A program made the position numbers and the translations under genes. Source: Euglena gracilis (Eukaryota). From it: a stretch of 64,000 nucleotides of DNA. Location: contig CP154954.1 of assembly GCA_039621445.1 (NCBI GenBank), positions 43,565,847 through 43,629,846 of the forward strand. Direction: 5' to 3'. The notes beneath the pieces were generated by a model that was given only the letters and a program-made list of their open reading frames with translations, was not told the DNA's origin and searched no databases. Numbering within the stretch: position 1 is the stretch's first letter; every line of letters starts with the position of its first letter. This document shows, one piece after another, positions 14,970-56,581 of the stretch.

Positions 14970-14971
14970 AG

Positions 14972-15395
14972 TGTACGTCCAAAGCTTTCCCTTTTCCCCT
15001 TTTTGGAACTTTCTGTAAAAGCCTTTCGCTTTCGCCTTGGTGCGCAGCCTACTTATGGTAGGGAAAAGTCTTTGGAGTAACGAAAAGTGGTTTTCCCCTT
15101 TTCTTCCCAATTCCCCAAGAAGCAAAGCACAAAGCAATGTCTCAGAAGTTTCTTCTGAGTTCAGTCTTGATTGTTCCAAGGGTTTTTCCCTCTGACAAAA
15201 CCAATGGTGAAACTTGGAATTGATGACAGTAAAGAATACCACCTGTGGGGGAAGGAGAGAAAAGTGCTGACGTGTCCAGGGGCAGATCCCAGAAGGGTCT
15301 GCCACGATCTTACCAGCTGTGGTTCCACAGTGGTGCGACCGTCACAGAACCCACTCTGCAGATATCCTACAGAGCTGGGACGTGCCTGGTACACA
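14972..15395 (-). repeat. 3' LTR of element C
   Basis: TG..CA; adjacent PPT GGGAGGGGGA (- strand, 15396-15405). Confidence 0.95.
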
Positions 15396-16796: not shown

Positions 16797-19700
16797 TCAT
16801 ACCCCTGCCTCCTCAGCAGCGAGGCGTATCGCCCCACTGTCGATCTGCCACCCACGGGCCATTCCCGTGTGGCGGTAGTCGTCGAGCTTGAGGTTGGCAT
16901 ACTTGAAAAAGTCCTTGAACGTTTTGTTCAAGGTGGAGTATTCCTCCAGTGGCTTCTCGGCACTTGGCACGATTGTGCGTACTGCGCCTTCCGCAGTGTG
17001 CCAAAAGGTACCTCGAAGGCAGTTGACGCAGAGAACTGGTACATTCGTACCGTCTCGGTCTGTGTAGCTGAAATTGTGCTTGTGGGTCCAACTGTCCACG
17101 CACTTGGCGCATACCAAGGCGGCACAGTTAGGGATGTATACATCCTTGTGGAACGATTTCCGATCCACAGGGTTGCACACATGGACGAGGGGTAATCCCA
17201 GGTCAAGTGCCCTGTTGTACATCTTGTGGCATACAGTGCAAAGCCACACAAAACGGTTTTCCGTTGTTTTGTCGATGAGGAATTCCTCACCGAAGAATTG
17301 GGCCAAAACACGGGGAGATCTGGAATTGTAATAATTCCAGGTCACATTCTGATCAAAGGACCATTTCCGTCCCTGACAGAACAGTGGTTCAATCCACCGG
17401 TTAAGGCATTGCTGTGTCCTCAATTTATGTGTAATCATCATGTACCTGTTTTTCAGGTCATGAATGTCAGGGTCATCCTGATTGATCGCGTTCCAGTCGA
17501 TGACAACTTCGTCTTCTGAAGGTGTCTCGGCTGTCGAGGCGCGGGATTTTCCCTGCCCCTTTGTCGGAGGTTTCGGCTGTGAGGTTTTCCCATAGCCGGA
17601 TGACGTGACATGCGTGAATCCTTGTCCCGAGGTTAATCCCCGAGAAGAGGATGCAGCACTCTGGCCGCCAGCACCACCACCGCCTTTCGGTGGGGGCTGA
17701 TCACCAGATTTCGGTGTGGGTTTGCAAGGTGCGGCGCCCGGTTTACTTTTCGCCGGGGCCTTCGGGCTTCCGGTTTCCGGAGTCTCCGAGGGTCGCCGCT
17801 CGGCGTCTCGTTTGCTTGCCCACGTGCGTGGTGACGCTTGGGACGGGGGTCTTTTCCCCGACGCCGAACGTCGTTGACCTTCAGCAGGGGTTTCCCGAGC
17901 TGATGGTCGTCCTACACGCTCCTTCGCGGCTCCCGAAGGTTTCCCAGGGGTAGCCGTGGGGGATGGTGTTGGTGTAGGCCTAGCCTGTGCACTTCGCGCT
18001 GGCTGAGCCTGTGGTGGAGGCATGGACGCCCGCTCGGCCTGTTTTTCAGACGCCGGTGTCCATGTGCCTTGACGCTTCTCTGCCGTGACTGTGGCTGTAC
18101 CGTGAGATACGGGTTCATCCCGTGCCTCCGGTGGTACCGCCGGTGTCGATACAGGATCATCCTGTACTGACACGGCTGGTGTTGTCTCCACAGTCATTGC
18201 CGTCTGTACGCCTTCCGTCCGTGTCGCTTCCGACACTGGCGGTGGCGCTGCCGTTGGGGGAGGTTCATCCTCCACCATGGCTGCAGATGTGTCTTCCGTC
18301 AGCTGGGCAGTTTCCGCCGCAGCTGTGGAAGAACTGGCCGCAGTGCCACGTGGAGTGACTACTGCGATCAGTGACCGTAAACCACCGAGTACGCGTCCGC
18401 CTAGTGAGGTGCGTCTCTCCTCACCTGAAGTGGGCTCCTCGGCTGGCTCTTCTGTTGACGGGGCTTCCCCGGAAACAGGGAGCTTGAGGCGTAATACCTC
18501 AGGCGTGTGGGGTACCGTTTCCGGCGGGTTTTCCCGCGGAGGGGTTGGTACACCCGCTGTACCCAGTGAGGCTGGTGATAGAGGGACAGGTGTCATTTCA
18601 CCTGCTTGTGATCCTGGGTGTTGGGCGGTTTCTGCCACAGTATCCAGCATCACTACCGATGGGCTACGGGTTTCCCGTGCCGGAGGTTCCGTTGGCTGAG
18701 GTTCATCCTCAGCCATGGGGACCTCCTCCTCCTCCTCGTCCGCTTCCGGAGAGGATTCGGCTGCGTGTAGCTGTGCTGCAGAACGCGGGTCTTTCCCGCT
18801 CCTGTAGCACCCTTGTGCGTTTGACAGGCGGAAAAAGCTAATACTTTCACTCCTGTCAGAGTTCGGGTATGGGGGTGGCCACGTCGCTCTCACCCAGCTT
18901 TCGGGTGGAGGTTGTGGTTGATCATCGTCGATCAAGCAAAGGTCTTCCCACTGCCGTCGACAATGGTCAGTCACGCCAAACTCTCCTGTTTCTTCCAGGA
19001 ATGCTGGCAGTGGCAACGCGTAACGAGGGACTTCCCCTTCGTGCGCCGCGAAAAACATCTGAAAATCCTCCCATATCAGGATATTCCCGAATTGGGTATC
19101 CAGGTGTTCTTGGAGACCTATTTCGGCCTCTTCCCAGTCTGGTCGTAGGTTCATCCTGCGCTGGTCTGGGTCATTGGGTCTGGCGTTCACCTCCATATAT
19201 CCCCGCGGCAACCACTTTCTGTGGATTTCCACATCGGCGGTCATATATTCCAGGAAATATATGTAGACCTCTAGGACGTAGGTAATCCACGCCCTGTGCC
19301 AGTACTGCTGCAGCAGAAATATTTTCTGCCGGTGCTGTTTCAGCACCTTTCGGTCTTGCGTTCCAATCCGGGGATTCCGGCACTGATGCAGGAGGAATCT
19401 CCTGGTCGGCTGGCTGCCGGCATTCTCGGCAGACGGAGGCGGTTTTCCGCGTTCTCCGAAACCCCAGAAGTCAACGATGTGGACTTCCTTGCAAAACTGG
19501 CATTCCAGTTTGTACCGCTGGGGGTACGCGAGGTCCACGTCCAATACCTTGAACAGCATGCCATACATGCTGTCCAAGAAGACTTGGAGGTTGTTCGTGA
19601 ACATTACCGCAGCCGGTGCCTGGAGTTTCTCCGGCAGGGGGTAATACTTCCACTGGATTCCCAGTGCGCTGACTGAAAACATGTGGTTGAAGATTTCCTT

Positions 19701-20717
19701 CAACTGTGCAACGAACGTTTCGCCGTCTTCACAGGTATTCAGGCAATCGGTATACGTCAGACCGTTTCGGTCGGTAAAAATGCCGAAATTCTGGCAGGGG
19801 TATCCCAACCAGAACCACAATTCCCAGAAACCAGGCATCTGGTCCAGGACAACTTCATTCGAATGAGGGTATCCCTCGAACGCATGAAGTTCGGCACTGT
19901 AGAAAAAACGTTTGCAGTGATCGTTCATACGATTCTGCACCACTTCGAGCACCGCATCCGGTGGTCGGTGGATCACGTTGCCTGCCCTTGTGAACTTTAG
20001 GAGATCTTCGTCGATTTTCGGCCAGATCTCCTCCAGGTACTTGAACACTGAGGCAACGTCATAATCCTTCGTTTTCGAAGGTTCGGCGGCTTTCCCGCCC
20101 TTACCTGCTGGGGGTCCGGCAGATTTTCCGCCTTTGCCTGGAGCTGACCAGGCGGCTTTTCCACCTTTGCCAGGTGGGGCTTTCCCACCTTTCTCCTGGC
20201 CTTTTCCTTTCCCCTTACCTTTACCCTTTCCTTTACCCTTGCCCTTTGTGTTTGACAGCCATTCGAATGTCGCCCGGTATGGGTCAAAGTATTCCCAGTA
20301 TTCTGGGTCTTCTGGCGTAAACACTGGGTAAGTCACGGATTCCGTGCTTGGCGTCCGAGCAAATTCCTGCTCAGCATCACCACGATTCGAGTAAACCGGT
20401 GCGACTGGGGATGGTCGGGTTTCCCGACGTGCCCGTTCTGCCGTCACGTCTGGCGCTGGCGGAGCTTCCTCCTCAGCGTCGACATGCATCGCCGCGGGCG
20501 GATTTTCCGACCTCGGCGAGCGGCGCTGTGGCTGCGGCGTCAGATTTTCCGGGCCGCGGTCACGCTTGCCGGCGGCAGAACTTGTGGGCCGTGCTAGAGG
20601 CGCTTCCGCCACAGCAACGTCCTGCTGTCGCGCTGGTTGACTTGATCGTGATGGAGCTGGGACTCCTGTGAGAGCCGACACAGCAGCATCATACTGCTGG
20701 CGCTCTTCCCGTGTCAT
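16797..20717 (-). CDS. Element C accessory protein, 1306 aa, unknown function, Cys-rich (RING/PHD-like) C-terminus
   Basis: Long uninterrupted ORF with two globular-looking regions, a GKGKGK tract and CTVC..HVC..CAALVCAKC..CVNC. Confidence 0.8.
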   Translation of the reverse strand: MTREERQQYDAAVSALTGVPAPSRSSQPARQQDVAVAEAPLARPTSSAAGKRDRGPENLTPQPQRRSPRSENPPAAMHVDAEEEAPPAPDVTAERARRETRPSPVAPVYSNRGDAEQEFARTPSTESVTYPVFTPEDPEYWEYFDPYRATFEWLSNTKGKGKGKGKGKGKGKGQEKGGKAPPGKGGKAAWSAPGKGGKSAGPPAGKGGKAAEPSKTKDYDVASVFKYLEEIWPKIDEDLLKFTRAGNVIHRPPDAVLEVVQNRMNDHCKRFFYSAELHAFEGYPHSNEVVLDQMPGFWELWFWLGYPCQNFGIFTDRNGLTYTDCLNTCEDGETFVAQLKEIFNHMFSVSALGIQWKYYPLPEKLQAPAAVMFTNNLQVFLDSMYGMLFKVLDVDLAYPQRYKLECQFCKEVHIVDFWGFGERGKPPPSAENAGSQPTRRFLLHQCRNPRIGTQDRKVLKQHRQKIFLLQQYWHRAWITYVLEVYIYFLEYMTADVEIHRKWLPRGYMEVNARPNDPDQRRMNLRPDWEEAEIGLQEHLDTQFGNILIWEDFQMFFAAHEGEVPRYALPLPAFLEETGEFGVTDHCRRQWEDLCLIDDDQPQPPPESWVRATWPPPYPNSDRSESISFFRLSNAQGCYRSGKDPRSAAQLHAAESSPEADEEEEEVPMAEDEPQPTEPPARETRSPSVVMLDTVAETAQHPGSQAGEMTPVPLSPASLGTAGVPTPPRENPPETVPHTPEVLRLKLPVSGEAPSTEEPAEEPTSGEERRTSLGGRVLGGLRSLIAVVTPRGTAASSSTAAAETAQLTEDTSAAMVEDEPPPTAAPPPVSEATRTEGVQTAMTVETTPAVSVQDDPVSTPAVPPEARDEPVSHGTATVTAEKRQGTWTPASEKQAERASMPPPQAQPARSAQARPTPTPSPTATPGKPSGAAKERVGRPSARETPAEGQRRSASGKRPPSQASPRTWASKRDAERRPSETPETGSPKAPAKSKPGAAPCKPTPKSGDQPPPKGGGGAGGQSAASSSRGLTSGQGFTHVTSSGYGKTSQPKPPTKGQGKSRASTAETPSEDEVVIDWNAINQDDPDIHDLKNRYMMITHKLRTQQCLNRWIEPLFCQGRKWSFDQNVTWNYYNSRSPRVLAQFFGEEFLIDKTTENRFVWLCTVCHKMYNRALDLGLPLVHVCNPVDRKSFHKDVYIPNCAALVCAKCVDSWTHKHNFSYTDRDGTNVPVLCVNCLRGTFWHTAEGAVRTIVPSAEKPLEEYSTLNKTFKDFFKYANLKLDDYRHTGMARGWQIDSGAIRLAAEEAGV

Positions 20718-21736
20718 TTCCGCCCGGGCAGGGTATCCCTGGCCAGCGGAAACAGGGGGCGACGTGCGATTTGTCGTTGGATCGTCACAGCATATTCATA
20801 CTGTTGACGCTCCTCCTCAGTCTCGAACGGCCGACCAGTCCACGGGTTAACGGGTTCATCCCGTGCCGGGGGAACTGGTGCCGCACGAGGCGCTGCCGCG
20901 GCTTCCCGCGGACGAGCGCTTCGGGCAGAGTCAGACGCCGGGGGAGGATTTCCCTCCGCAGGACGTCGTGGGATAGGGTCAGGTATAGTTGGGTGGGGTT
21001 GAGGTGGATATACGTACTGATCCTGTGGCCTTGGCGCCTCCTGGGGATAATCCCCAGAGACGGCGTACTGAGACACATGCTCCTCTGCAGGATAATCCCG
21101 CCGGGGCACGCGCTCAGGGGATCTAAAAATGCTTTCTTTCACGCGTGGGTGTTCACTCCGGACAGGTGCTTCCACTGTCTCTTCCTCGGGTAATCCGGGG
21201 GAGTGAGCACGAAAATGTGCAGTGTAAGTGCCAACTGGTGGTACCTGCCGTGCGACCTGTGGCGGGACTTCCACGCCCAGGTCACGCATGGTAATGTCTG
21301 CCGCGAATCCCGACGCGTCCGGGTCGGTGTAATACACCAGACCGGTCATCGTCGCCTGGGCGCACATACACCACAGGGCTGGAGGGGTATTCGCGATGGT
21401 CAAAACTTTACGGCAGTGGTCATCCCACAATGCCTGTGTGAGTTGGTCTGGTGCCGGGTTTGCGCTCATACGCATAACCCGGTTCATCGTCTCCGCCGTG
21501 CGGTGGATCATCACACCCGCATACGGTGGGAGGCGACGAGAGCCTGATGGCTGAGATGGCCGCGCTTCCGCGGGCATCTGGGTCATCCTGCTACTGCTGC
21601 TGGCTTCAGGGTTTCCCTGAGCCGCAGTCCGTGCAGGTGGCTGCGTACCGTATCGGTACGCATACTGGTCAGGTTGAGGGTGAGTGGTGGGGTGGTAAGG
21701 CGGTCCTCCGCCTGGCTCCCTTCCGCCGGGCAGCAT
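20714..21736 (-). CDS. Element C accessory ORF, 340 aa, Pro-rich; possibly a frameshifted N-terminus of the 1306-aa ORF
   Basis: ATG-initiated ORF downstream of pol; ATGA overlap with the next ORF; both share an EERQQY motif. Confidence 0.65.
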   Translation of the reverse strand: MLPGGREPGGGPPYHPTTHPQPDQYAYRYGTQPPARTAAQGNPEASSSSRMTQMPAEARPSQPSGSRRLPPYAGVMIHRTAETMNRVMRMSANPAPDQLTQALWDDHCRKVLTIANTPPALWCMCAQATMTGLVYYTDPDASGFAADITMRDLGVEVPPQVARQVPPVGTYTAHFRAHSPGLPEEETVEAPVRSEHPRVKESIFRSPERVPRRDYPAEEHVSQYAVSGDYPQEAPRPQDQYVYPPQPHPTIPDPIPRRPAEGNPPPASDSARSARPREAAAAPRAAPVPPARDEPVNPWTGRPFETEEERQQYEYAVTIQRQIARRPLFPLARDTLPGRK

Positions 21737-21898
21737 ATTACCGCCCGGGGACGGTACGGTAGGATGTTGGGGTTGTTGGTTGTAAGGTGTGTGAGGGTAA
21801 CCGCTTGAGTATTATTTGCTAAAAAGTCTGCGGAAAGAAAGAATGATAAGAATCAATGATAAAAAGAAGAGAAAACAACATGGGTTTCCCATGCGTTC

Positions 21899-24800
21899 TC
21901 AAAAACTTGTCATGGAAACATCAATGTTATGCTTCTTGTTCCACAGCTTCCAATCTTGCTGGACATACCCAACAAAACTGGTTGCTGGCTCCCAAGTGTC
22001 CTCCTCGGGCCCGTACCCTTTCCAGCGGACCTTCCAAAGGTGCATACCTTTGTCGATTTTGTGATCGATAATTTTATCGACTACAAAGTCGTCCGTCTCA
22101 GGTAATCTGGAACGGGGTTTGAAGTGCAAACACGGGATGGGTTTCCCATCCGGTGGCGACAGGTATGGTTTGAAGTCGTCCATATGAACGTCCTCAACAC
22201 CATTCGGTAATGCAACCTTGTAACGCCCGCTGGTACCTAGTCTTTCTAGGATTTCACAGGGGCCGAGCCAGAGGGGGTCCAGCTTGGAAGACTGCATGCG
22301 AGTACGGCTATTCCGTACCCACACGCGGTCACCGGGACTATAAACAGGTGACTTGAAATTCTGCAAAAACGATTTCCGTTTTGCTGCATGAATATCAGTC
22401 ACGCGCTTCTGGACTGCAGAACGTAGATTTTCTACTTCCGCAAACCAGGTCTCGCAACTGACACTCGTTCGGGCGGGTCTCTCCGAAGGGACATCCCCTA
22501 TGGCCGGAGGGTCCCGTCCGAAAACTAATTTATAGGGGGAGTGAGGTAAAACCAACCCTGGTAGGGTATTGATATAAAACAAAGACCATGGTAGAACTGA
22601 TATCCAGTTGCTGCGCGAGTCAGCCAGTGAAAGGCGAAGCATATTCACGACGGATTTCACGGCTGCCTCGGCTCTACCATTGCCTTTGGGTCGGTATATA
22701 ATGGAAAAATGTTGCTCGATTCCGAGTAAACCGCACAAAGTGGTGAAAAACCTTGAAGAAATCAAATGGTCTTGATCACTCACGATTTCATTCGGTAAAC
22801 CCATTAAGCAAATGCATTTCTCCAAAAATATAGCTGCCAAACTTTGGGCAGTCAACCCTGACTTCTGGCATGGAATGGCTACAATGTACCCACTCAGCCT
22901 GCAGACGACAACAAAAACGTAATCGTAAATTTTGTCGTCTGTTCCTTTGCACGGTTCTAATTCCAGAAAATCCATGCAGAGGGATGTAAAAATGTCAGGG
23001 GGTACGGGGAAAAAATCCATCGTACCAGGGGGGGTACCTCTGCGGGGTTTTACCGCTTGACAAATTTGACACCGTTGCGCTATTCGCAAACAGCGTGAGT
23101 AAAGCTCTTTCTCGCTCAGGGTTGTACAGTACCTGCGGCCCACCAACGAAAGAAGTTTGGGGGCCCCAGGGTGACCATGGTTGTGATAACACAAAATCAC
23201 ATCATCAACCAGGTCCTGGGGGATACAATATTTGTAACCCGATTCATTGCGAAAAACCAACCGTAAAGGTGAAAGAGTGTAATTGTCCAGCACTTCGCCA
23301 TTACGAAGTCTGGTGACAATGGTGTCATACACCGGATCACGACTATAATCCCATTCGCGAAAGAACAGTGGGGAAGGGGACTCCGTGCGCGTAATACGCC
23401 GGGGCCCGGACGTGCTTCCACGTCGGCGCCTTCCTCGCACTGGTGCGACCAGGAATAGTTGTGAAACGGGAAAAGAATCCAAAAGATTGTCCGCAGCGTC
23501 GTTTCGACGTGCGTACTCGTCAGCTTCCTGACTTCCATGAAAAGTCGCGTCTCCCTCATCCGGGTTCCCAGGGTAATACCAAGGGGCCCGACTGAGCGGA
23601 TCCGCTACTTTTTGTGTGTGTCCAGGGGTATAAATAACCACAAGGTTGAATTGACTCAAGAACTCATGCCATCTGCATCGCCTTCCGACCGATGACATGG
23701 CCTTGTTCAAATCCTCGGTGTACCAGTGTTGGAGACTCTCATGGTCGGTCTTGACGAGGATCTGGACGAGGCTGCTGGCTACCCAGCTTCGGAATTTCTG
23801 GAGTATAAGCACGATTGCGTAGGTTTCCTTCTCGCGTATACTCCATTTGACTTGACCTTTTCCATCGTCGCCCTGTAACTTTCTGCTGAAGAAAGCCACA
23901 GGTCGGAGCTCATTCGCCGCATTATGCTGGCTAAGAACTCCGCCAACAGCATAATCGCTGCTGTCGACTTCCAACACGTATGGTTTGTACGGGTCCGCGA
24001 TTTCGAGGACAACATTCTCCAAAAGCAAAACCTTGATTTTCTCAAGGGCCTCGCGCATTTGGTCATCCCAAATGACTTTGGTATTGTCAACAGCCCGGTT
24101 TTTGAGCTGTTTGGTGAGGGGCACCGCGATTTTCGCGAAGTCCTTCATATAAATCGCGTAGTATTGGGCTAATCCCAAAAATCCTTTGAGGTGAGTAATC
24201 GTTTTGATTACCTCAGGGGTCCATTTCTTAATAGCTTCGAGTTTACTCGGAGCGGCTTTCCGCTGTCCATTGCTGAGGATGTGACCGCAAAATTTTATGA
24301 GATTCCGAAACAAATGCATTTTCGCGCCTTTCGCGAAAAGCACATGTTTTTGAAAAGCGGCTAATACCGCGCAAACATGGTGGAAATGTGTGACGAGGAT
24401 ATCCTCACTCGATTTTGCGGATGGTGGTGGTGTTCCCACCAGCACATCATCAATGTACACAATGGCAAACGGTAAATCGCGTAGAACCCATTGTATCATG
24501 CGCTGAAACATGGCTGGGCCATTCTTAACACCCATGGGGAGTACCGTCCATTGGTACACACCCTTGGATGTCACGAATGCCGTGTATGGTTGGGAGTCAG
24601 GGTGTAAGTGCATTTGGTGAAAACCGTCCTCCAGATCGAAAATTGACCACAACCGGTTTTCCGATTGTTTGGTGATCAAATCCTCGATCAGGGGGAGCGG
24701 GAAGGGATCATCCCTTGTTTGGGAGTTCAGGTACCGGTAATCCAGCACCAGCCTCCATTTCTTCTGACCTGAGGGGTCTGGGGGTTTAGGAACAACAAAT

Positions 24801-25195
24801 GCCTGGGATGTCCACTCGCTTTTCGAGGGTACTATCCACTTGCGCTGAATAAGCTTCTCAATCATTTCATTGAGAGCTTGTTCGCGTTCTCCCGAACAAC
24901 GAAAAAATTTCCGGTGCATTGGTTTGGCTCCATCCTTAAGCTCGATCTTACAAACACCGAACGGACCGCGTATCGCGGGGTCGATGTCGCACGCGTATAC
25001 TGGATTTTCCAGCACACCGTGGAATTCGCGGGTAATCCGCGAACAGAATTCGGCTGACTTAGGATGCTGACCTGCACTCTCGATGACTGCGGAAACCGCC
25101 AGGGTATCCCTGGGGCTACCGAGCTTCCTCGGCACCGCGAATTCGGACATTCCGAATGCATCGAAGAAACATACACGAAAAATGATTTCTTGCAA
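21899..25195 (-). CDS. pol: Element C pol: RT, RNase H, integrase, chromodomain
   Basis: WRLVLDYR, LPMGVKNGP, YIDD; LEVDSS, TDH, ADPLSR; HHCC finger, MDF..SDQD..GNGRAE, LWLGPC; VDKIIDH..VRWKGY..DTWEP. This stretch is uninterrupted. Confidence 0.97.
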   Translation of the reverse strand: MQEIIFRVCFFDAFGMSEFAVPRKLGSPRDTLAVSAVIESAGQHPKSAEFCSRITREFHGVLENPVYACDIDPAIRGPFGVCKIELKDGAKPMHRKFFRCSGEREQALNEMIEKLIQRKWIVPSKSEWTSQAFVVPKPPDPSGQKKWRLVLDYRYLNSQTRDDPFPLPLIEDLITKQSENRLWSIFDLEDGFHQMHLHPDSQPYTAFVTSKGVYQWTVLPMGVKNGPAMFQRMIQWVLRDLPFAIVYIDDVLVGTPPPSAKSSEDILVTHFHHVCAVLAAFQKHVLFAKGAKMHLFRNLIKFCGHILSNGQRKAAPSKLEAIKKWTPEVIKTITHLKGFLGLAQYYAIYMKDFAKIAVPLTKQLKNRAVDNTKVIWDDQMREALEKIKVLLLENVVLEIADPYKPYVLEVDSSDYAVGGVLSQHNAANELRPVAFFSRKLQGDDGKGQVKWSIREKETYAIVLILQKFRSWVASSLVQILVKTDHESLQHWYTEDLNKAMSSVGRRCRWHEFLSQFNLVVIYTPGHTQKVADPLSRAPWYYPGNPDEGDATFHGSQEADEYARRNDAADNLLDSFPVSQLFLVAPVRGRRRRGSTSGPRRITRTESPSPLFFREWDYSRDPVYDTIVTRLRNGEVLDNYTLSPLRLVFRNESGYKYCIPQDLVDDVILCYHNHGHPGAPKLLSLVGRRYCTTLSEKELYSRCLRIAQRCQICQAVKPRRGTPPGTMDFFPVPPDIFTSLCMDFLELEPCKGTDDKIYDYVFVVVCRLSGYIVAIPCQKSGLTAQSLAAIFLEKCICLMGLPNEIVSDQDHLISSRFFTTLCGLLGIEQHFSIIYRPKGNGRAEAAVKSVVNMLRLSLADSRSNWISVLPWSLFYINTLPGLVLPHSPYKLVFGRDPPAIGDVPSERPARTSVSCETWFAEVENLRSAVQKRVTDIHAAKRKSFLQNFKSPVYSPGDRVWVRNSRTRMQSSKLDPLWLGPCEILERLGTSGRYKVALPNGVEDVHMDDFKPYLSPPDGKPIPCLHFKPRSRLPETDDFVVDKIIDHKIDKGMHLWKVRWKGYGPEEDTWEPATSFVGYVQQDWKLWNKKHNIDVSMTSF

Positions 25196-25278
25196 GGGTG
25201 GTAATATTTTACCACAAACTCCTCAAAAATCGGTACATTAGTGGGTAAATCCCACCAATGAAAACATACATACGATAG

Positions 25279-26952
25279 TTAGGTGAACCATTCCGCTTCC
25301 GGAATGATGGGTATGAGAATAACTCCACGGGCTTCATCCCGCAGAATTTTCTCAACCGCACATTCGATAAGTTTTGGGGGAGGGTGCATCCATAACACCG
25401 TATCACCCCAAAATTTATCAAATGCGTTGGAGTGTTGTGACCAATGACGTGGCAAACGGGCATGTGCATTGGATGAGAAGGCATCGATTTCCAATGCCAA
25501 ATCAAAAGAATCAGCCAATGTCGCGATTTTGGAAAACCATCGTTCCAAAATGCGATATTGACCAAAATTGAAAGCATTCCATACGCGTTTCGCGTATTCA
25601 TGCACCCGTTTTCCGGGTTGAAGTGAAGAAACACAATGAATGGATCCACAAACATGCGGGCTGTCTTCCACTACCACAAGGGTTAATCCCAAGGGAGTTT
25701 GGACAGGTTGGGGGTTTCCCCATTCCGCATCAAATCCGTACCAAGTGTGATCGCGATTGTAATTAGGAATCGCGCTTTTCGCGTTTCCGAACAACGAGGC
25801 TAATCCGCGTTGTTGGAGTACTCGGTGTATCTCCGCGCATTGCGGGCTACAACCAAGTGTATCATGGGGGGTGGATTCCGTTTTCGGAATTGCGATTAGT
25901 GTCGGATTTTGAACTAAACATCCACAATCGAAATCCGATTGGGTGGAAATTCTCCTGCAGTGCACACATTGGAAGGAAGTGTAGTGGTGTGACGGGTGTG
26001 CGTGTACGTGGGTGTCGATGGCATTAGCCGGTGAGTCTTGTACAGGTGTGCCTGGATTCGGCACAACTGGTGGGAAACGGAGTGGTGGTGTAGCTGGGCG
26101 ACTACTCGACACCGTAATTACTTCAGGCCTTTGGGCTTTCGTCTTGTAACCCAGTGAAACGGCGGGGGTACCGCTACTCGCTTGCCCTGCCTCATGTGGA
26201 ACGCATGTTGGTGTGTCATTGGGCAGGGGGGAGGCTTTCTCCGTACCCCGGGTGTGGAAAACGGTTGTTGGTGTGGTGGGTAACGGTGTTGCCATTGTGG
26301 GTAACGGTGTGGGAAAAGCGGTGGTCATCATAGTGGATGACAACGGTGATGGTGGTTTGGGTGTCAATGAAGTGGTGGGTGCTGTGCGCAAACCGTGGGA
26401 GTGGCAATCCACAACCAATCGGTACTGGCGTAAAAATGGGTATCCCAAAATTACGTCAGACCCGTGAATTCCGGACTCGTAACCCCAAATATTGGTGAAA
26501 TGTTGTAATTGTGGGGGTTGTGAGTGATGCTTCGGAATGATGGGCAAGAGTATCTCGAGCACACATCCCAAATCACCACCACACATGGGGGTGTTATCCG
26601 CGGTTGTAATTTTGATCGGTTTCTTGGCGCTTACCAAGAGCGGGGTCGGTATCAACCCCAACCGAAAGAGCAGTGCAATGCGACAACCAGTGTCAATGAG
26701 AATTTTGACTTTGGTGGAGAAATTTTGAATGCGGATTTCCGCTTGGACGAGTAATTCCATTGGTGGTACGCAAAGTGAAGGGTCTGGCGGAAATACGTTT
26801 GCATGCCAGCTCTCCCATGAACCCTTTCCTACTTTGCTCAGCATTCCGAGCGGAAATGTGGAGTGGGGGGTAGGGGACCCGAAATAATTCCGGGTACTGA
26901 CCGTGAAGGCGGATGGGCAGGGGGGGTAAGGTTGATCAGGTCTTACCTCCAT
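25279..26952 (-). CDS. Element C aspartic protease followed by Dam-like domain (5' part of pol; separated from RT by one stop and a frameshift)
   Basis: ILIDTGC..DVILGYPFL; then LEIDAFSS..NAFDKFW..LWMHPPP..GVILIP..EWF. Plausible coding sequence continues past the TAA (LSYVCFHWWDLP). Confidence 0.85.
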   Translation of the reverse strand: MEVRPDQPYPPCPSAFTVSTRNYFGSPTPHSTFPLGMLSKVGKGSWESWHANVFPPDPSLCVPPMELLVQAEIRIQNFSTKVKILIDTGCRIALLFRLGLIPTPLLVSAKKPIKITTADNTPMCGGDLGCVLEILLPIIPKHHSQPPQLQHFTNIWGYESGIHGSDVILGYPFLRQYRLVVDCHSHGLRTAPTTSLTPKPPSPLSSTMMTTAFPTPLPTMATPLPTTPTTVFHTRGTEKASPLPNDTPTCVPHEAGQASSGTPAVSLGYKTKAQRPEVITVSSSRPATPPLRFPPVVPNPGTPVQDSPANAIDTHVHAHPSHHYTSFQCVHCRRISTQSDFDCGCLVQNPTLIAIPKTESTPHDTLGCSPQCAEIHRVLQQRGLASLFGNAKSAIPNYNRDHTWYGFDAEWGNPQPVQTPLGLTLVVVEDSPHVCGSIHCVSSLQPGKRVHEYAKRVWNAFNFGQYRILERWFSKIATLADSFDLALEIDAFSSNAHARLPRHWSQHSNAFDKFWGDTVLWMHPPPKLIECAVEKILRDEARGVILIPIIPEAEWFT

Positions 26953-26997
26953 CTGTTCATCAGCCCAGAGGTCCGTGCCCTCGGACCTCGGGCTCCC

Positions 26998-29900
26998 CTA
27001 CTCCAAGTCCGAACCGGCCGCATAGCCGGCAACGGACTTTTTGGTGGAATAGATGGAATTCAATGAGCGCACCGCCATTCGGGCCTCATTAAATTCCCCG
27101 TCCGAGGTCTCATCCCCCTCCCTGCCCGAAGCCGGGGTGTCCTCCTCCAAACAAGATATCTTGAAACCGACCTTTTGCCGGTTGGAGGAGTAACCACGGT
27201 CATCGCGGCGCTTACCGCGATTTCCGTAGCCGGGCCGGGGGGAACGAGATCTGGGACATTTGGATGCGTGGTGATCTTTGGAACCGCAAAGTGAACAACG
27301 GGATTTGTGGCGGGATTCCGCATAACGGGGGGAACGGTATTCCGTTCGACCGTCAAACCGTCGTGGTGAACGGGTTTCCCGTCGACCATGACCGGTGTAT
27401 CGGGTCTTCCCCGTTGACTCGCGCGAAGAGGATGATCCACTTCGCGAACGAGATCGTGAAGAATCGCGATTGAAATCCCGTTTTCGGGCAGGGGGGCCAG
27501 GTGACCGACCGCGAGAAGGACGGGTTTCCCGACCATCACGCGATGGTGACTTGGGCCTACTACCGCTAAAGCGGTTCTCCGAAGACCGTGAAACTCCCGA
27601 TTGACGTGAAAACGCCGAGGAACCCGATCCCCGTGAGGAGGTCGAGCCCCTTGGGCTTCCAATACGCTTTCGCGCATCGGGATTCGGGCATTCCCGAGAC
27701 ATGTGACCAGATTTGTTGCACAAAAAGCACAGTTTATCCGTGCCCTGGTCCGAAGAACGCTGATTCCGCGTTTTCGGTCCCGTGGTGGGTGATCTTGGTG
27801 ACATGGGTGATTTTTGCAACGCATTAACCGCACCCGCAGGGATTCCCGCGGTGGGATGCGTTTGGAAAGCGGACTGTATTTGTCCCAAAACTTGTGTGAG
27901 CTTGAGTTGCTTTGACACATAATTCCAACGTTGGGCAAGAGTCATCTCATGCCCTGCCAACTCCTCGCGATGGATATCCTTCACGAGGGATGGTGTGAAA
28001 TGCAACAAAACCGCATCGAATTGTTCGCGCATTTGCTTCTCGCTAAGTTCATCAACTTCGGAAGCAAGTGCTAACCATTTGGCATACCAAAGGTCAATGG
28101 ATTTCCATTTGCGATCCGATGGCGCGGATTGTCGCCATTTCTTTTCCAGGGTAATCCTGGTGACCAAGCTTGAGTTGGTTGAAGCGTATTGCTCAACCAG
28201 GTCATCAAATGATACGCCATTACGTATCACCAAATTGCGTGCGCGTTCTCGCTCCTCCCTCGGTAGGCAATCGATGAATTCCATCTTGACTACCTCGGGA
28301 TTCGGGTCTTGGGTGGGTCCCTTTAGTGCCCAATAGTACTCCCAGTCCCGAAAAAATTGTCTCCATGTGGTTGGATCCCCGTCCCATTGGGGCTTCACCT
28401 TGTTCGCGATTGCGATGGTGCCCTTGAAGTCTCTCTGAGTAACCCGCTGACCCTCGGTGGTATTCCAGGGGTTTGGGTCAGGGTAATTCTTAACACCAAA
28501 CGCGTTTCGCGGATTTTCCGCTCCATGTGTAACCCGTGCAGGATTTCCCGCACCAAGTGTAAGGTTGGCAGGATTTTCCTGCGGGATTTGCGAAAAATTT
28601 GGTGAAATTCTCCCGGTGGGGCGGGTTTCCCGCCGAAAACCCGATGGGTGATTCGGTAATCCAGAACCCGTTGGTGGTTGGTATGATCGCGAATGCGACA
28701 CATGACCAATACCAGGTGTGGGGTGTTGGCTCATTCCTCGTACAAGGTTGGAATGTTGAATTTCTTGGTGGAGACTCGAATTTTCGAGTGGGGGGTCAAT
28801 TTCCTCATCGGAAATGTCGTGCGAAGAGTGTGTTTGTGGTGTTGGCAAATGCAAAGGTGGTACAATTCGCGTTTTCGCGGGTGGTTGTACCAAATTCGCG
28901 GTGGATGTAGGGATTCCTACTCCGGAAATGGTAATTTGAGAACGCGATTCCGGGACATTTGGAATACCAACCGCAGCGCTTACCGCGGTGGATGGTGGCA
29001 CAACCGGTACCGGAGTGGACATTTTATCCAAACTCGCGGACAAGTCATGCACCGTTTCTTCCAAATGTTCCACCAACTGGAGTTGGCCGCAAATACGGTC
29101 AACCTCAGTCTCCAAATGCCTAATGCGTTTGCGGTAACGGGAAAAATCTTCCAAGTGTGGCAACTTTTCAGAAACCAAGTGTAATTCTTGGGCAAGATTT
29201 CCTTGGGACTCCTCCACATTCCGGAGTTGACCCGCAAGCGCTTTTACCGCATTTGAGACGGTTTGCAATTGGTGGAGTGACTTGGTGGGGGTTTCCACGG
29301 TGGTGCGCGAATTTTCCGCGGTTGGTTTTTCCAACAACGCAGAAATTCGTCCATCCAACCGAGAAACCTCATCTTGCATGGATCGGGCATTCCGATTCAC
29401 GCTTTCCTCAATTTGGAGCAAACTTGTACAAAATGCTTGCAAGGTTTCCTTGTTGTCACCAAGCACTTTGTCATAAAATGAGCGAAATTCCGGTGACTCG
29501 GATATCCGAGCACGCGAAATGGGGGGTAGTGAGCGGATTTCCGTCACTGTGGTGGACAACAAGGTGCAACGGGTTTGCAATTCCCCAATAGCGGCTTGAA
29601 TACCACTAATGTCGGGAATTCGCTTGGAAAGTGCAGAAACATGCTCCTGCAAACCGACAACGGTGGCATTAATACCGCCAATGTCCGTTTGCATTTGTTG
29701 TTGCGTAAAATCCAACCGTTGTGCGCAATCCGCGATTTTCGCGTTCAAGGTGGTTAATCCATCCTGATTTGCGGCACAATGGCAGGATTTTTGCTCCAAG
29801 TGTGAAATTCGTTCCTCCAAAAGCTGGATTTGTGTACGGGGAACAAAATTTTCTTGCACTTTCATCTGGAATTGCTTCAAGTGCTCGATTTCCGAGCCAA

Positions 29901-30651
29901 GATGCAAAATCCGTTGTTGGGCTTCTTGGAAAGAAGTGGTAAGTGCGGCAAAATGCTCAACCGCGACAAAGTTACCGATTTCCGGCATTTTGGGGGTGGC
30001 ATTTTGCGCTTGTAACTGCTGCTGCAATTGCAGTAGCATGGTTGAACAAGATTCCACTTTGGCAAAAAGATGGCTCATACCATCTTGCACGTGCAGAAAC
30101 TTGGAATCATTCCGCGTTTCCGCTTCATGCAGCATTTCGCTGATTTGTTGGAAATTTTGTGGAAGTTGGATGCGCAAAATACTGTCAACACTTTCTCGAA
30201 AATGCTGAAGGTCTTTCCCCGCATTTTCAAAATTGTGTTGGCAATATTTGCCGATTTCCTGCAAATAATTCCAGCAACATTCCAGTTTGGTGTTGACAAC
30301 CCTTTGATTGTCCTCATCGAACTGCAAAACTTTGTTGAGCATGGTTGCGCATTCCGCAACGCATTGGTGGACATGCAAAATTTGCTTGCTAAGCGGGTGA
30401 TCCGCTGGGAGTTGACCGAGAATTCGGTAAACATCACCGGGGGTGAGGTTATCCCTCAAATCTTCCTCATAGTCCTCCACAATGGAAACGGCACCAGAGA
30501 TTTCCGGTACCACCAGACGCATATCTGGGTTCCATGGCAATGCAGGGAAAACCGCAGCTTCCGCGGGTAATCCCGGCAATGCGCGAAGTGGTGTGGGGGG
30601 TGGTAATTGAGGGGGGGTTGGAAAAAACACGGTGTTTCCACCGAGTTGCAC
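26998..30651 (-). CDS. gag: Element C gag, 1217 aa, coiled-coil N-half, two CCHC zinc knuckles
   Basis: CFLCNKSGHMSREC and CSLCGSKDHHASKC; WDGDP..W..F capsid-like motif; lies upstream of protease. Confidence 0.9.
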   Translation of the reverse strand: MQLGGNTVFFPTPPQLPPPTPLRALPGLPAEAAVFPALPWNPDMRLVVPEISGAVSIVEDYEEDLRDNLTPGDVYRILGQLPADHPLSKQILHVHQCVAECATMLNKVLQFDEDNQRVVNTKLECCWNYLQEIGKYCQHNFENAGKDLQHFRESVDSILRIQLPQNFQQISEMLHEAETRNDSKFLHVQDGMSHLFAKVESCSTMLLQLQQQLQAQNATPKMPEIGNFVAVEHFAALTTSFQEAQQRILHLGSEIEHLKQFQMKVQENFVPRTQIQLLEERISHLEQKSCHCAANQDGLTTLNAKIADCAQRLDFTQQQMQTDIGGINATVVGLQEHVSALSKRIPDISGIQAAIGELQTRCTLLSTTVTEIRSLPPISRARISESPEFRSFYDKVLGDNKETLQAFCTSLLQIEESVNRNARSMQDEVSRLDGRISALLEKPTAENSRTTVETPTKSLHQLQTVSNAVKALAGQLRNVEESQGNLAQELHLVSEKLPHLEDFSRYRKRIRHLETEVDRICGQLQLVEHLEETVHDLSASLDKMSTPVPVVPPSTAVSAAVGIPNVPESRSQITISGVGIPTSTANLVQPPAKTRIVPPLHLPTPQTHSSHDISDEEIDPPLENSSLHQEIQHSNLVRGMSQHPTPGIGHVSHSRSYQPPTGSGLPNHPSGFRRETRPTGRISPNFSQIPQENPANLTLGAGNPARVTHGAENPRNAFGVKNYPDPNPWNTTEGQRVTQRDFKGTIAIANKVKPQWDGDPTTWRQFFRDWEYYWALKGPTQDPNPEVVKMEFIDCLPREERERARNLVIRNGVSFDDLVEQYASTNSSLVTRITLEKKWRQSAPSDRKWKSIDLWYAKWLALASEVDELSEKQMREQFDAVLLHFTPSLVKDIHREELAGHEMTLAQRWNYVSKQLKLTQVLGQIQSAFQTHPTAGIPAGAVNALQKSPMSPRSPTTGPKTRNQRSSDQGTDKLCFLCNKSGHMSRECPNPDARKRIGSPRGSTSSRGSGSSAFSRQSGVSRSSENRFSGSRPKSPSRDGRETRPSRGRSPGPPARKRDFNRDSSRSRSRSGSSSSRESTGKTRYTGHGRRETRSPRRFDGRTEYRSPRYAESRHKSRCSLCGSKDHHASKCPRSRSPRPGYGNRGKRRDDRGYSSNRQKVGFKISCLEEDTPASGREGDETSDGEFNEARMAVRSLNSIYSTKKSVAGYAAGSDLE

Positions 30652-31373
30652 TCCAAAAGGCCCACCGGTGCTTCCACCGGGGATCTTTTGGGTGTGAACA
30701 GAGCAAAGGGCAAATACCCCTCACTTTGTTCATGGGTAACATGAGTAACCAAGTGTGAGGGTGCAAGGGGTTCATCCCCTCGCCGCATCAATGATGGGTG
30801 AATCGGGATGGAGGAAGGCATTTTGCCACCTACATCCCGCACAATCAATGACAATGATGATGAAGAGGGTTCATTACCCCCATGCAACAATAAAGGCGTT
30901 TCGCCTTTTGACAATGACAAATGAGTCAAATTGCCTTCTTCTTGCTTGGGGGGTCGGGAATTGGAACTTGTTTCATTCAAACCGTTCCAATCCCCGCAAT
31001 CTTCATCACAATTGCTCAATGAACTCATCAACAAGTCATAATCAAATTTGGGGTTGGGGCTTGTGCTCTGCATCTTTTGAGATGGGTAAAAAGGCAAAAA
31101 CCCAAAAATTCACACAAATAAGCAGAGAAACAGGGACCAGAAAGGTTGTATCGGCGATTACCGAACAGAGCCTTCTGAGACCTGTATCCTTGCTTAAAGG
31201 TTGGCTAGGGGCCAGGAACAGTACTTTCACCGTGTTTCACGGCTCAGTACGATCCTCACCACCAGTCAACCGCAGAGTTTCTCTGTGTGGAACGTCTGTG
31301 TGGGATCGTTGCCTAAATCTGCTACCAAGTGTATTACCTGGTAGCCTTTCTTTCTGTAGGATCTTTGACCTAT

Positions 31374-31383
31374 TCTGCTACCA
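31374..31383 (-). promoter_or_regulatory. Primer binding site of C (initiator tRNA-Met type)
   Basis: TGGTAGCAGA, 2 nt after the 5' LTR on the - strand. Confidence 0.85.
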
Positions 31384-31385
31384 AG

Positions 31386-31809
31386 TGTACGTCCAAAGCT
31401 TTCCCTTTTCCCCTTTTTGGAACTTTCTGTAAAAGCCTTTCGCTTTCGCCTTGGTGCGCAGCCTACTTATGGTAGGGAAAAGTCTTTGGAGTAACGAAAA
31501 GTGGTTTTCCCCTTTTCTTCCCAATTCCCCAAGAAGCAAAGCACAAAGCAATGTCTCAGAAGTTTCTTCTGAGTTCAGTCTTGATTGTTCCGAGGGTTTT
31601 TCCCTCTGACAAAACCAATGGTGAAACTTGGAATTGATGACAGTAAAGAATACCACCTGTGGGGGAAGGAGAGAAAAGTGCTGACGTGTCCAGGGGCAGA
31701 TCCCAGAATGGTCTGCCACGATCTTACCAGCTGTGGTTCCACAGTGGTGCGACCGTCACAGAACCCACTCTGCAGATATCCTACAGAGCTGGGACGTGCC
31801 TGGTACACA
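31386..31809 (-). repeat. 5' LTR of element C
   Basis: Near-identical to 14972-15395. Confidence 0.95.
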
Positions 31810-32330
31810 CTCAGACCCCAGGTGGAAAGCGGATTACCAGGTGGACGTACTGGACTGGGACTTCAGAAAACATTTCAAACCTGGCGAATTCCACACGGTG
31901 GTTTGTGGAGTTCCCTGCACAGAATTCAGCATTGCCCTGACGACAAGACCCAGAAACCTGGAAAAGGGAGACAGCCTTGCAAAGAAAGCCCTGGAAATTG
32001 TGGAATTTCTGCAGCCGCAGAAATGGTGGTTGGAAAACCCAAGGTACGGATACCTGGGAAAACGAGATTACATGAAACCGTACCCGTACATTGACGTGGG
32101 TTACTGTCAATACACAGACTGGGGCTACAAAAAACCAACACGAATCTGGGGGAGCCCTGACATCCTGCAGGTACCAGCAAAACGGTGTGACGGAAAAACC
32201 TGCAAAAACCTGGACCCGAACGGTGGTGGTCACCTGGTGAAACTCAGCAACAAACACAACAGTCCAGCCTTCAAAAAATTCAGGATCCCAGAACAACTGA
32301 TTCAGGACCTGGCGGGGTGCCACGAACGGC
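31810..32330 (+). pseudogene. Element A C5-cytosine methyltransferase, catalytic part
   Basis: CGVPCTEFS (motif IV, catalytic PC), WWLENP (motif VI), YKKPTRIW; in frame with the downstream protease and RT. Confidence 0.88.
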
Positions 32331-32489: not shown

Positions 32490-35400
32490 ACATTCGGCTT
32501 CCAAAACGACTGTGTGAACCGGTGGCCAAACTCCTGCTGGGGCAGGTCATCAGCAGAAAGAAAGCAAAACAACTCCTCATCGAAGTCCGTGCTGTGTTGC
32601 CGGATAGCAAAAAAATGTTCCTACAGGCCCTGATTGACCCGGAAGCACAGGCAAACCTGGTGAAAAAGAACCTGATTCCCCAACAAAACTTCAGACGTTC
32701 ACAAAAACCCTTGGCCCTGATCACAGCAGACGGAACAAGGATGGAAGGAGGACTACACGAAGTCACACTGGAACTGCAGTTTTCATCACGGGTGCACAAC
32801 ACGGACAGAACAAGGGAATGGTCCACCATTGGAACGTTCCATGACGCCGACATCCAAGTGGATGCCATCCTCGGGTCTCCGTGGATGGAACAACACCAAC
32901 TGGGGGTTTTCCCACACCTACAATCATTGGCCCTCATAGGTGAACCACTGCGGCTGCTGTCCAGTTGGCACCAGCTGAAGGAACAAAAGCACAGGGAACG
33001 GAAAATACACCAACTTCAGAAAAAGATTTCGGCAGTGCGGGCAATTAATTTGCAGATTCCTGCTGAAGCGGGCCAGGACGAGGAAAAACTGTTTGAAGAC
33101 GAAACAACACTGGAAACACTGGCAAAACAACTTCAGAAATCGGCAAAGAAATCTGACAGGGTTCACGGTGTTGTGGTGGTGCCAGAAGGACAGGAAACAC
33201 AAGGCGAAAGGGTGGCTGAACTGGTGAAAAAACTGCGGCAGGACTGTGAAGGAGTGGTCTTGCGAGACAAAATTTACCCAGACCCCCCAGAACGCGGACC
33301 ACTGGGTTATGGGAAAATCGAACTGAAACCTGGAACAGTGGCGAAAAAGCAAAGACCCATCCACATGACAGGAGAACGCCGACAGGCACTCATCGACATG
33401 GTGGACGAATGGGTTAGGGACCTGAAAGTGGAAGACGGGAGGAGTGACTGGTCCAGCCCCACGTTCGTGGTGGCCAAAAAGGGTGGAAAATGGAGAGGGG
33501 TGGTGGATTTCAGAGCACTGAACGAGGCAACAATCACAGACGCCCATCCCCTCCCTAGGATAGAAGACATCCTATTTCAACAAGGACAACGGGCCCTGTA
33601 CTGGACCTCAAAGACGCCTTCCACCAGGTGCCACTGAGAACAGAGTCCAGACCCTACACCTGCTGCAGCACACCTAAGGGAACAAAACAGTGGAGAGTGG
33701 TGGTCATGGGGATGAAAAACGGTGTACCGATTTTCCAGAGGGTGATCGAGTACAGCCTGGAGGAGGTACAGGATATTGCAAATCCCTACGTGGACGACAT
33801 AATCGTAGGAACCGTATGGCAGGGGTCAGAAGAAAAAACCCTCGAACAACACGACAAGGACATCAGAAGGGTGATGGAGGCACTGAAAAAACAGCAGCAC
33901 GTGGCAGACATTAAGAAATGCAAATTTTTCGTGAAATAGGTGGAATTCTGTCGACACGTGCTGGGTGGTGGACAACGAAAACCAGCACCAGGCAAACTGA
34001 TGGCCTTGGAAAAATGGGAGGAACCCAAAACGGTCACAGCCCTGCGGGCATTCCTGGGATTCACAAACTACTACGCCTCATACATCCCAGGGTACGCAGA
34101 ATTGGCAGCAGACCTAATGGAGAAACTGAAGGTGAAAAAGGGACAGGGGAAGAAAGGACGCCTGACACCTGTGTTTTTCGGTGAAACGGAACGAACAGCT
34201 TTTCAGACTATCAAAGAAAAACTGCTGGGAAGCCTGAAACTGCAAACGGTGAACCCAGACAAACCGTTCATACTCAGGGTGGATGCAAGTGGCAGAGCCG
34301 TGGGTGCGGCTCTGGAACAATTTGCGGAGGACACTGCAGAAAAACCAGACCCAACAACAGCCATGACCGAAAACACAGTACCCGTAGCTTTCTGTTCACC
34401 AAAACTGACACCTGGGCAGGTTCGCTCGTGGTCTCCTAGGGAGAAGGAGACCTACGCAGTGATCCTGGCCATGCAAAAATGGGCTTCCTGGATAGGAAGG
34501 CAACCGGTTCTGGTGTTGACGGACCACAAGTCCATTGAGGCGTGGGCAACGGAGGCGCTGGACACCCCCAGTGGACCACCTGGACGTAGGGCTAGGTGGC
34601 ACGAACTGCTTTTGCGGTTCGACATAACTGTTGCATACGTACCTGGCAAAGACAACACGGTCGCCGATGCCTTGAGTAGGTGGGCCTACCCCGCCTCACA
34701 GGCATTCGCCGACGTGAGTATCCACGGGAGTGAGGAGGACGACCGACTCATGAAAGAAATCATCAAACAGGAGGAAAAGGAACAGAAAACTTGTATGGTG
34801 ATCAACGTGGCAGACCTGACACAGGCACAAAAACAACTTCAAGAACCCGTCACTGTGGCCGTCACAACAAGGGGGGGAGCCAAAACGGGTGAAGATTCGC
34901 CCACAGTGCCTGGTTCAACGGAAAACGGTGACACCCCTCAAAAAAATTCAAAGCCACCTCAAAAACCTGCAAAAACGACAAAGAAATGGGTTGTGAAGGA
35001 AACAACTGTGGTGAAACCAAGCAAAAAACTGGCAGGGGCAACCCCAAGGGAGACCACGGAGGCAGGAAACCTGGGCTCCGCCGGAAACCTGATCCGACCA
35101 GACCAACCAAAAAACAAAACCCCAGAAAATTAAAACACGGCCGAGGGACCATCCACTGAGGAAGACCCACCAAGGCGAAGACCCCTGGAAGAGGACCCTG
35201 TGGAACCCCTAACAACAACAGACACAACAAAACAACAGGACGCGCAAGGTGCGTCATCCTCAACGGGGACACCCGTTGGACCTCCATCAAGGGGAGTGCA
35301 CGCCCCGGAGCTTCAACAGGGGGAACCGAAAGGGGTGATGGACAGGGAATGGAAGAACGAGTACGAAAGTTGCCCAAGGTGGGGACCTGTGCTCAAGGAC

Positions 35401-46447: not shown

Positions 46448-46449
46448 AA

Positions 46450-46461: not shown

Positions 46462-46465
46462 GTTT

Positions 46466-56563: not shown

Positions 56564-56581
56564 AATGGTAGCAGAGGGTTT

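Follow-up and report, generated by a model that had tools for sequence, protein, structure and literature searches.

A Dam-like domain with HPPP at the motif IV position in a very abundant Euglena gracilis chromovirus: a possible non-catalytic module of Pol

The DNA analyzed here is a 64,000-nucleotide stretch of the Euglena gracilis genome (assembly GCA_039621445.1, contig CP154954.1, positions 43,565,847 to 43,629,846; referred to below as the window, with positions counted from its first letter). It contains a fragment, B, and two nested retroelements, A and C, all three of which carry a domain resembling the DNA adenine methyltransferase Dam. In element C, a long terminal repeat (LTR) retrotransposon on the minus strand, this domain reads HPPP at the position where canonical relatives read NPPF, NPPY or NPPW. 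The locus therefore raises the question of whether the departure is damage to a single copy, the mark of a domain taken from A or B, or a property of the whole family, and what such a domain does within Pol. An earlier note had placed the domain of C between the protease and the reverse transcriptase (RT), at 25200–25560, and had read its catalytic motif as WMHPPP. Both statements were confirmed: the domain occupies approx. 25210–25617 (minus strand), and is thus slightly wider than proposed, while WMHPPP lies at 25375–25392 and the HPPP codons at 25375–25386. With somewhat better than even confidence, we favour the reading that in the C family the Dam-like domain has been lost to catalysis and retained as a non-catalytic module of Pol, in a chromovirus of very high copy number.

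The open reading frame (ORF) at 25279–26997 (minus strand; 572 aa from stop to stop) ends in a match to the Pfam family Dam (PF05869) with 18.5 bits and an E-value of 0.0016, the gathering score of the family being 28.1 bits. The match covers ORF residues 494–571 and profile positions 22–103 of 169. A TAA nonsense codon (25279–25281) interrupts the domain, and a match read through it, with X in its place, reaches 22.4 bits (E 1.1e-4), which is still below the gathering score. A phmmer search with the 162-aa domain against 1.84 billion representative proteins produced 210 matches at E≤1e-3, 34 of them at E≤1e-10, and the matches include accepted Dam members, such as P0022 (E 4e-14; 44.7 bits with Pfam) and P0023 (E 5.9e-14; 38.7 bits). 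The domain of C, a minimal methyltransferase fold of class I, shares its ancestry with the phage-Dam-type "MT" domain known from DIRS elements and from the DAM-LTR retrotransposons discussed below.

The AlphaFold model of the domain, built on a 50-row alignment, had a mean predicted local distance difference test (pLDDT) score of 78.4, with residues approx. 70–180 above 90, and HPPP is placed by it in the loop between strand 124–127 and helix 131–143, which is the position of motif IV. Comparison of the model with 48161 chains by VIA-align gave PCIF1/CAPAM (6irx) as the best match (Z 8.4, root-mean-square deviation 2.5, 115 residues); T4 Dam (Z 6.7), EcoDam (5.7), M.TaqI (5.5), METTL5, KsgA and Erm enzymes were also found, and most of the 50 matches listed were methyltransferases dependent on S-adenosylmethionine (SAM). 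Z values near 8 are common for models without a clear match, and it is the consistency of this list, not Z alone, that argues for the methyltransferase fold. A Foldseek search of the PDB with the domain gave no match at E≤0.001 (the top rows were again PCIF1), and a PDB search with the domain profile gave none. The predicted structure is that of a class-I SAM-dependent methyltransferase. The motif IV consensus of Dam enzymes is Asn, Asp or Ser, followed by Pro-Pro and an aromatic residue, and the HPPP of C does not conform to it. The D-A-F motif, located on strand 1 of the fold, is retained in C as IDAFSS (25471–25488, minus strand); of its residues, D95 and F97 hardly vary among the 50 aligned rows.

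The state of the motif in other copies was examined by mapping contigs of four sequencing runs (X1, X14, X15 and X18) onto positions 24900–27100 at ≥80% likeness; this stretch was at least partly present in 20 of the 24 runs listed. The family proved to be very abundant, with 20390 contigs placed from X1 and 7815 from X14. No well-supported change in the HPPP codons was found among the 40 of 369 differences that were listed (the scope of all statements on variants given below). Within the core of the domain (25282–25560) the sole difference among them was 25477 G>A, present in 74% of the X1 depth, which is synonymous (TTC to TTT). Near-identical contigs span the motif in X15 (627 nt with 8 differences) and in X18 (239 nt with 1), and their differences can be assigned to listed positions outside the motif, by reading of the table and not of a printed alignment.

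The same motif was found in proteins related to the domain of C. P0003, the only protein obtained in the search for near-length homologues, shows 72% identity along 76 aa and has MHPPPQ, although it is decayed elsewhere, e.g. in the D-A-F motif; P0057 (68% identical over 40 aa) reads WMHPPQ. A search for related loci in metagenome contigs gave 278 pattern matches, of which none was confirmed. The earlier note had named NPPF or HPPY in other copies, and hence copy-specific decay, as a finding that would speak against its reading. This case did not materialize: judged from these sequences, HPPP is shared at the level of the family, and a non-canonical motif at that of the clade.

The position of C among its relatives was analyzed in a tree of the Dam-like domain comprising 132 rows: A, B, C and 129 of the best 150 of the 210 matches, the remaining 21 having been left out on account of too little domain coverage. 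C fell into a clade of 16 rows (94 in the Shimodaira–Hasegawa-like approximate likelihood ratio test, SH-aLRT), and a non-canonical motif IV was found in all 16: NPPI in four rows, NPPV in three, NPPH in two, and NPPL, YPPI, HPPF, HPMF, NPHY, NPTL and HPPP. Instead of an aromatic fourth residue, 13 of the 16 rows have Ile, Leu, Val, His or Pro; the other three keep the aromatic residue but are altered elsewhere in the motif. In the C family the Asn of the motif has been replaced by His as well. Among the 129 library rows the canonical motif occurs in 73, His at the first position in 12 and a non-aromatic fourth residue in 33. Outside the motif the clade is conserved in D-A-F-S-S, in the Leu-Trp preceding the motif, in the helix following it and in W-W-D-L-P, located beyond the stop codon of C. 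Twelve of the 14 clade members tested scored below the Pfam Dam cut-off.

The nearest relative of C in this tree, P0014, is also its partner in a 15-row tree of the RT (85% identity over 162 columns), so that the comparison of Dam and RT phylogenies suggested in the earlier note gave the same pairing twice. The Dam-like domains of the two are only 44% identical, versus 85% for the RT, and this domain therefore evolves much faster than the RT. In the 18 proteins that contain both domains, the Dam-like domain precedes the RT in 15 and follows it in 3; several of them have a protease upstream, and in several members an uninterrupted frame runs through protease, Dam-like domain and RT. The common protease–Dam–RT order, together with the pairing of C and P0014 in both trees, indicates that C inherited this arrangement with its RT lineage.

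Elements of this general kind are already known. Ty3/Gypsy-type retrotransposons with a DIRS-derived Dam-like domain in Pol, often with a chromodomain (DAM-LTRs), have been described in several eukaryotes, and those of E. gracilis are reported to fall into two DAM clades, both with strong support and a complex history (Fernandez-Moreno et al., May 2026; bioRxiv 10.64898/2026.05.21.726589). The same preprint describes the catalytic pocket as preserved: nearly every DAM sampled there has Asn-Pro-Pro, and an aromatic residue comes next. C resembles the DAM-LTRs in its LTRs, Ty3/Gypsy-type RT, RNase H, integrase and chromodomain; it differs in that its clade departs from the pocket described there in 16 of 16 rows. 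The screen used in the preprint was an hmmsearch at E≤1e-5 (Methods section 13), which C misses with E 1.6e-3, or 1.1e-4 when read through, although these values come from a one-protein scan and are not directly comparable. The main text of the preprint makes no mention of a protease, of PCIF1 or of any term beginning with inactiv-.

What the loss of the motif may mean can be judged from METTL3 and METTL14. In N6-adenine methyltransferases the residue that opens motif IV forms a hydrogen bond with the N6 amino group, and the aromatic residue stacks on the flipped adenine. In METTL3 these residues are Asp and Trp, whereas METTL14, which reads EPPL and lacks an aromatic moiety, is catalytically inactive (PMC5023411). 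By analogy, the C clade has probably lost adenine methylation, both residues being replaced in C itself, and from the sequence we infer that the domain of C is catalytically inactive. The comparison is one of possible mechanism and not of family: the two share an adenine-N6 methyltransferase fold with the motif IV aromatic lost, and METTL14 acts as a non-catalytic scaffold or partner; METTL14, however, is an MT-A70 protein, stands on its own as a product of the host, and has an active partner that is known, METTL3.

We therefore propose the following for the C family. In its Pol, the protease is followed by a Ser/Thr/Pro-rich linker containing a Cys motif, then by the Dam-like domain, and then by RT, RNase H, integrase and chromodomain. 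Motif IV, the adenine-binding motif, has lost its canonical form throughout the clade, and the rest of the domain is well conserved; most likely the domain would no longer transfer a methyl group to the N6 of adenine, and would have been kept as a structural or binding module of Pol, comparable in this respect to METTL14. The conservation of the remainder of the domain and its retention in frame point to such a non-catalytic role.

Several observations weigh against this proposal. The identities of 44% and 85% between C and P0014 also fit relaxed constraint on the Dam-like domain. Pro-Pro and the D-A-F motif survive in C, so that its domain may bind a cofactor or work by an altered chemistry. 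The expression of canonical eukaryotic DAM domains in E. coli yielded no N6-methyladenine (6mA), as stated in the preprint (10.64898/2026.05.21.726589), and in this family a canonical motif is thus not a proven marker of activity. The shares of motif types in the library are biased, because its rows (environmental ORFs) were chosen by similarity to C. Finally, minority variants of the motif cannot be excluded, given that 40 of the 369 differences were listed.

The explanation that best survives beside a non-catalytic module is a neutral relic: methyltransferase function would have been lost in the ancestor of the clade, and the domain would persist only because losing a segment from within Pol does harm, or because such a loss has yet to occur. 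The fast divergence of the domain relative to the RT agrees with this, as do the low Pfam scores of 12 of the 14 tested members and the motif itself, which exists in at least ten states within 16 rows. The many positions conserved across the clade do not agree with it, nor does the fact that several diverged relatives keep the frame open through the domain; the one well-supported polymorphism in the core is synonymous, which is a single observation. We consider a relic unlikely.

A methyltransferase that is still active, through a non-canonical pocket or on another substrate, e.g. RNA, as in the case of PCIF1, appears doubtful. The features that are conserved, namely the fold, Pro-Pro in motif IV and D-A-F on strand 1, speak for it, and His does stand first in the motif in 12 of the 129 library rows. 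PCIF1/CAPAM, a cap-specific adenosine N6-methyltransferase, is moreover the best structural match of the C model, ahead of T4 Dam, but its Z of 8.4 is in the range common for models without a clear match. The motif of PCIF1 is NPPF. PCIF1 is also a large host enzyme with a helical domain and has no significant sequence match to C, which lacks NPPF. C has other residues both at the first position, which provides the hydrogen bond, and at the position of the aromatic that stacks, and the loss of the aromatic is the very argument made for the inactivity of METTL14 (PMC5023411).

The copy of C in the window is itself damaged. At position 25281 an A>G difference, which turns TAA into CAA, was supported by 634005 of 637378 depth units in X1, 169719 of 170266 in X14 and 9.43 of 9.43 in X15. 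CAA is present at 25279–25281 in 99.5% of the read depth, which shows the internal stop to be a private feature of the copy studied here. Further private substitutions were found at 25219, 25609 and 26007. Homology with the relatives continues beyond the stop. An intron at 25200–25280 that would remove the TAA, and alternative decoding of this codon, were both considered and set aside in view of the CAA depth and of the homology running through the site.

A second irregularity concerns the junction of the Dam-like domain and the RT (25216–25218, minus strand), since in this copy the frame of the RT is offset by −1 from that of the Dam-like domain and a −1 shift would be needed to reach it. An extra A behind 25215 was found in 66767 of 379120 depth units in X1, 21985 of 106884 in X14 and 9.43 of 9.43 in X15, and an extra A or G in 10.2 of 13.9 in X18. 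The extra base creates a single continuous ORF; it accounts for approx. 18–21% of the depth in the DNA runs X1 and X14 and for most of it in X15 and X18, which we guess to be RNA. In P0009, P0012, P0014 and P0015 the Dam-like domain and the RT are in one ORF. Inspection of 25190–25225 by eye revealed no canonical slippery heptamer for a −1 frameshift. C is a recently inserted copy whose Pol can no longer be encoded.

That HPPP is likewise no more than decay of this copy is nevertheless very improbable, in spite of the private TAA and substitutions, for the motif codons are unchanged in thousands of contigs within the differences listed, relatives of approx. 70% identity read HPPP or HPPQ, and the conversion of NPPF to HPPP takes three base changes, versus LTRs that differ at 2 of 426 positions.

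The remaining explanation involves the elements around C. C is inserted in the DNA methyltransferase (DNMT) of element A, the motif I of which lies at 14891–14911, with PCTEFS at 31913 and ENP at 32033. By coordinate arithmetic, the frame of A is continuous once C and one copy of its target-site duplication are removed, and the Dam and DNMT domains of A are therefore fused in one ORF upstream of the protease. The placement of the Dam domain of A before the protease in the earlier note was thus correct, and the domain precedes the DNMT as well. It spans 14168–14527 (plus strand), with NPPF at 14426–14437, and scores 32.5 bits with Pfam Dam, above the cut-off; that of fragment B spans 8565–8819 (plus strand), with NPPF at 8718–8729 and 21.1 bits. 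In tblastn comparisons within the window, the domain of C is 31% identical to that of A over 122 aa (E 4.5e-14) and 28% identical to that of B over 85 aa (E 1.8e-9).

The earlier note had inferred independent capture or relocation of the domain within co-resident families. A separate Dam-bearing lineage is supported: besides the clade of C described above, A and B form a pair (98) within the NPPF/NPPY group of the Dam tree, and an approximately unbiased (AU) test under LG+G4, run with a subset of 51 rows out of 132, rejected a clade of C, A and B, with a log-likelihood difference of 75.4 and a p-AU of 3.1e-7. The RT of A is at most 40% identical to any row of the 15-row RT tree. Relocation did not stand up, in view of the order found in 15 of the 18 relatives and the pairing of C with P0014. 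On the available sequences C is a lineage separate from A and B, and not the result of a relocation of their domain. The acquisition of the domain from A or B by recombination or relocation, which the presence of both families in one genome and the nesting of C in A might suggest, is hardly credible, being contradicted by the AU test, by the identity of just 31% to the domain of A, by the pairing of both the RT and the Dam-like domain with P0014 and by the protease–Dam–RT order of the relatives.

A and B match the EpiLTRs of Euglena, which are described as combining DAM, DNMT and chromodomain (10.64898/2026.05.21.726589). C has in common with them the genome, a homologous Dam-type domain and the Gypsy-type RT, RNase H and integrase. 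In A, however, a canonical NPPF domain is fused to a DNMT upstream of the protease, whereas C has no DNMT, carries HPPP in a domain between protease and RT and belongs to a separate clade. The absence of a DNMT from C, as claimed in the earlier note, was borne out by a tblastn search with the DNMT ORF of A, which gave no match in 14970–31809 at E≤1e-5, and by a Pfam scan of the five long ORFs of C, in which no DNA_methylase match was found.

Three further features were observed in A or elsewhere in the window. In A, a weak protease stretch (Peptidase_A3, E 0.23; 32630–32647, plus strand) reads D-P-E in place of D-T/S-G, and its active site may, judging from this motif, be degenerate or unusual. 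Two stretches of approx. 9 kb each (40600–49800 and 50700–59700, plus strand), 96–99% identical and spaced by approx. 10.0–10.25 kb, both hold an A-like RT–RNase H–integrase region; they may have arisen when an element and its flank were duplicated, in tandem or as a segment, or may be young copies, two in number. A direct repeat of 277 nt with 98% identity, found at 9425–9701 and 38769–39045 (plus strand), 29.3 kb apart, may represent LTRs or shared ends of A/B-type elements.

Element C itself is a complete Ty3/Gypsy chromovirus of 16,840 bp (14970–31809, minus strand), nested in element A. It is bounded by LTRs of 426 nt, the 5′ LTR at 31384–31809 and the 3′ LTR at 14970–15395, which match except at positions 15178 and 15295, and it is flanked by a 5-bp target-site duplication, CTCAG (14965–14969 and 31810–31814). 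The primer-binding site, TGGTAGCAGA (31374–31383, minus strand), follows immediately after the 5′ LTR and is, we presume, complementary to the 3′ end of initiator tRNA-Met; the polypurine tract, GGGAGGGGG (15397–15405, minus strand), adjoins the 3′ LTR. These features, together with the coding capacity from gag to chromodomain, identify C as a complete 16.84-kb chromovirus: a zinc-knuckle gag, a retropepsin, RT, RNase H, a DDE integrase, a C-terminal chromodomain and LTRs are all present. A tRNA scan found none, and a scan of 25000–25400 for bacterial promoters and terminators, which is not apt for a eukaryotic element, was empty.

The gag ORF (26998–30720, minus strand; 1240 aa) encodes a coiled-coil-like protein with a zf-CCHC motif. 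It ends with TAG at 26998–27000, in the same frame as the protease ORF. Beginning 3 nt downstream of this TAG (positions 26950–27000, minus strand) is a hairpin of 13 bp with a single bulge, its 91-nt fold having −37.6 kcal/mol and a z of −2.0, and no read variant of the TAG was found among the differences listed. Gammaretroviruses use stop-codon readthrough at the end of gag, and the hairpin may be a signal for it.

The retropepsin protease (26383–26754, minus strand) contains DTG at 26686–26694 and ILGYPFL at 26431–26451, and its DTG is unchanged across a 12-row alignment with relatives. The Pfam match is weak (Peptidase_A3, E 0.022) and a PDB sequence search gave no match; the model had a pLDDT of 83.8, and its top Foldseek matches were all retroviral or Ddi1 proteases (best E 1.2e-4; 15 at E≤0.001). 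The Ser/Thr/Pro-rich linker between protease and Dam-like domain contains a Cys-rich motif (25918–25974, minus strand), consisting of CxxC, 10 residues and CGC. In the alignment it is kept in P0005, P0009, P0012, P0014, P0015, P0017 and P0026, and its pattern suggests that it may be a small zinc-binding module.

The ORF downstream of the junction (21899–25222, minus strand) encodes RT, RNase H, integrase (H2C2, rve and SH3) and chromodomain, with Pfam matches to RVT_1, RT_RNaseH, rve and Chromo. Two ORFs of 365 aa and 1332 aa (16797–21811, minus strand) separate pol from the 3′ LTR. Pfam found no family in either, and a protein atlas search with the 1332-aa product gave no usable match; runs of low complexity, of Lys-Gly or rich in Pro, occur in them, as does a C-terminus rich in Cys.

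The Dam-like domain also links C to another group of retroelements. Goodwin and Poulter reportedly described an MT (Dam-like) domain in DIRS1-like tyrosine-recombinase elements. The DIRS MT domain is a small PF05869-like family with D-A-F and NPP-aromatic motifs, and DIRS elements themselves have a tyrosine recombinase, split or inverted repeats and no target-site duplication. C, in contrast, has an rve DDE integrase, direct LTRs and a 5-bp duplication, and no tyrosine-recombinase family was matched by Pfam in the C ORFs scanned.

The kind of element to which C belongs is thus already known, and our finding qualifies a recent result and does not define a new kind of system. New are a complete, young and precisely delimited copy of the C family, the recognition that its degenerate motif is a state of the family and of a conserved clade, which scores mostly below the Pfam threshold, and the rejection of an origin from A or B. 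Because most of the clade falls below this threshold, profile-based screens probably undercount it. A very abundant and recently active family, and the clade around it, have lost the canonical pocket motif while keeping the domain in frame in the middle of Pol.

The preprint, the only known study of LTR retrotransposons with a Dam domain, argues that the domain helps to place 6mA on new insertions (10.64898/2026.05.21.726589). In one genome, NPPF in A and B and HPPP in C offer a natural comparison by which to ask whether 6mA enrichment needs the element's own enzyme. It is a speculative and, at present, improbable extension of the proposal that the C clade represents a switch from writer to non-catalytic protein, i.e. 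a pseudo-methyltransferase binding SAM, adenine-containing nucleic acid or an active methyltransferase. If this were true, the partner would be, for example, a host enzyme or the canonical domain of the co-resident EpiLTRs, the model in which DAM deposits 6mA on new copies would fail for a large part of these elements, and abundant chromoviruses would exploit adenine-methylation chromatin without making the mark themselves.

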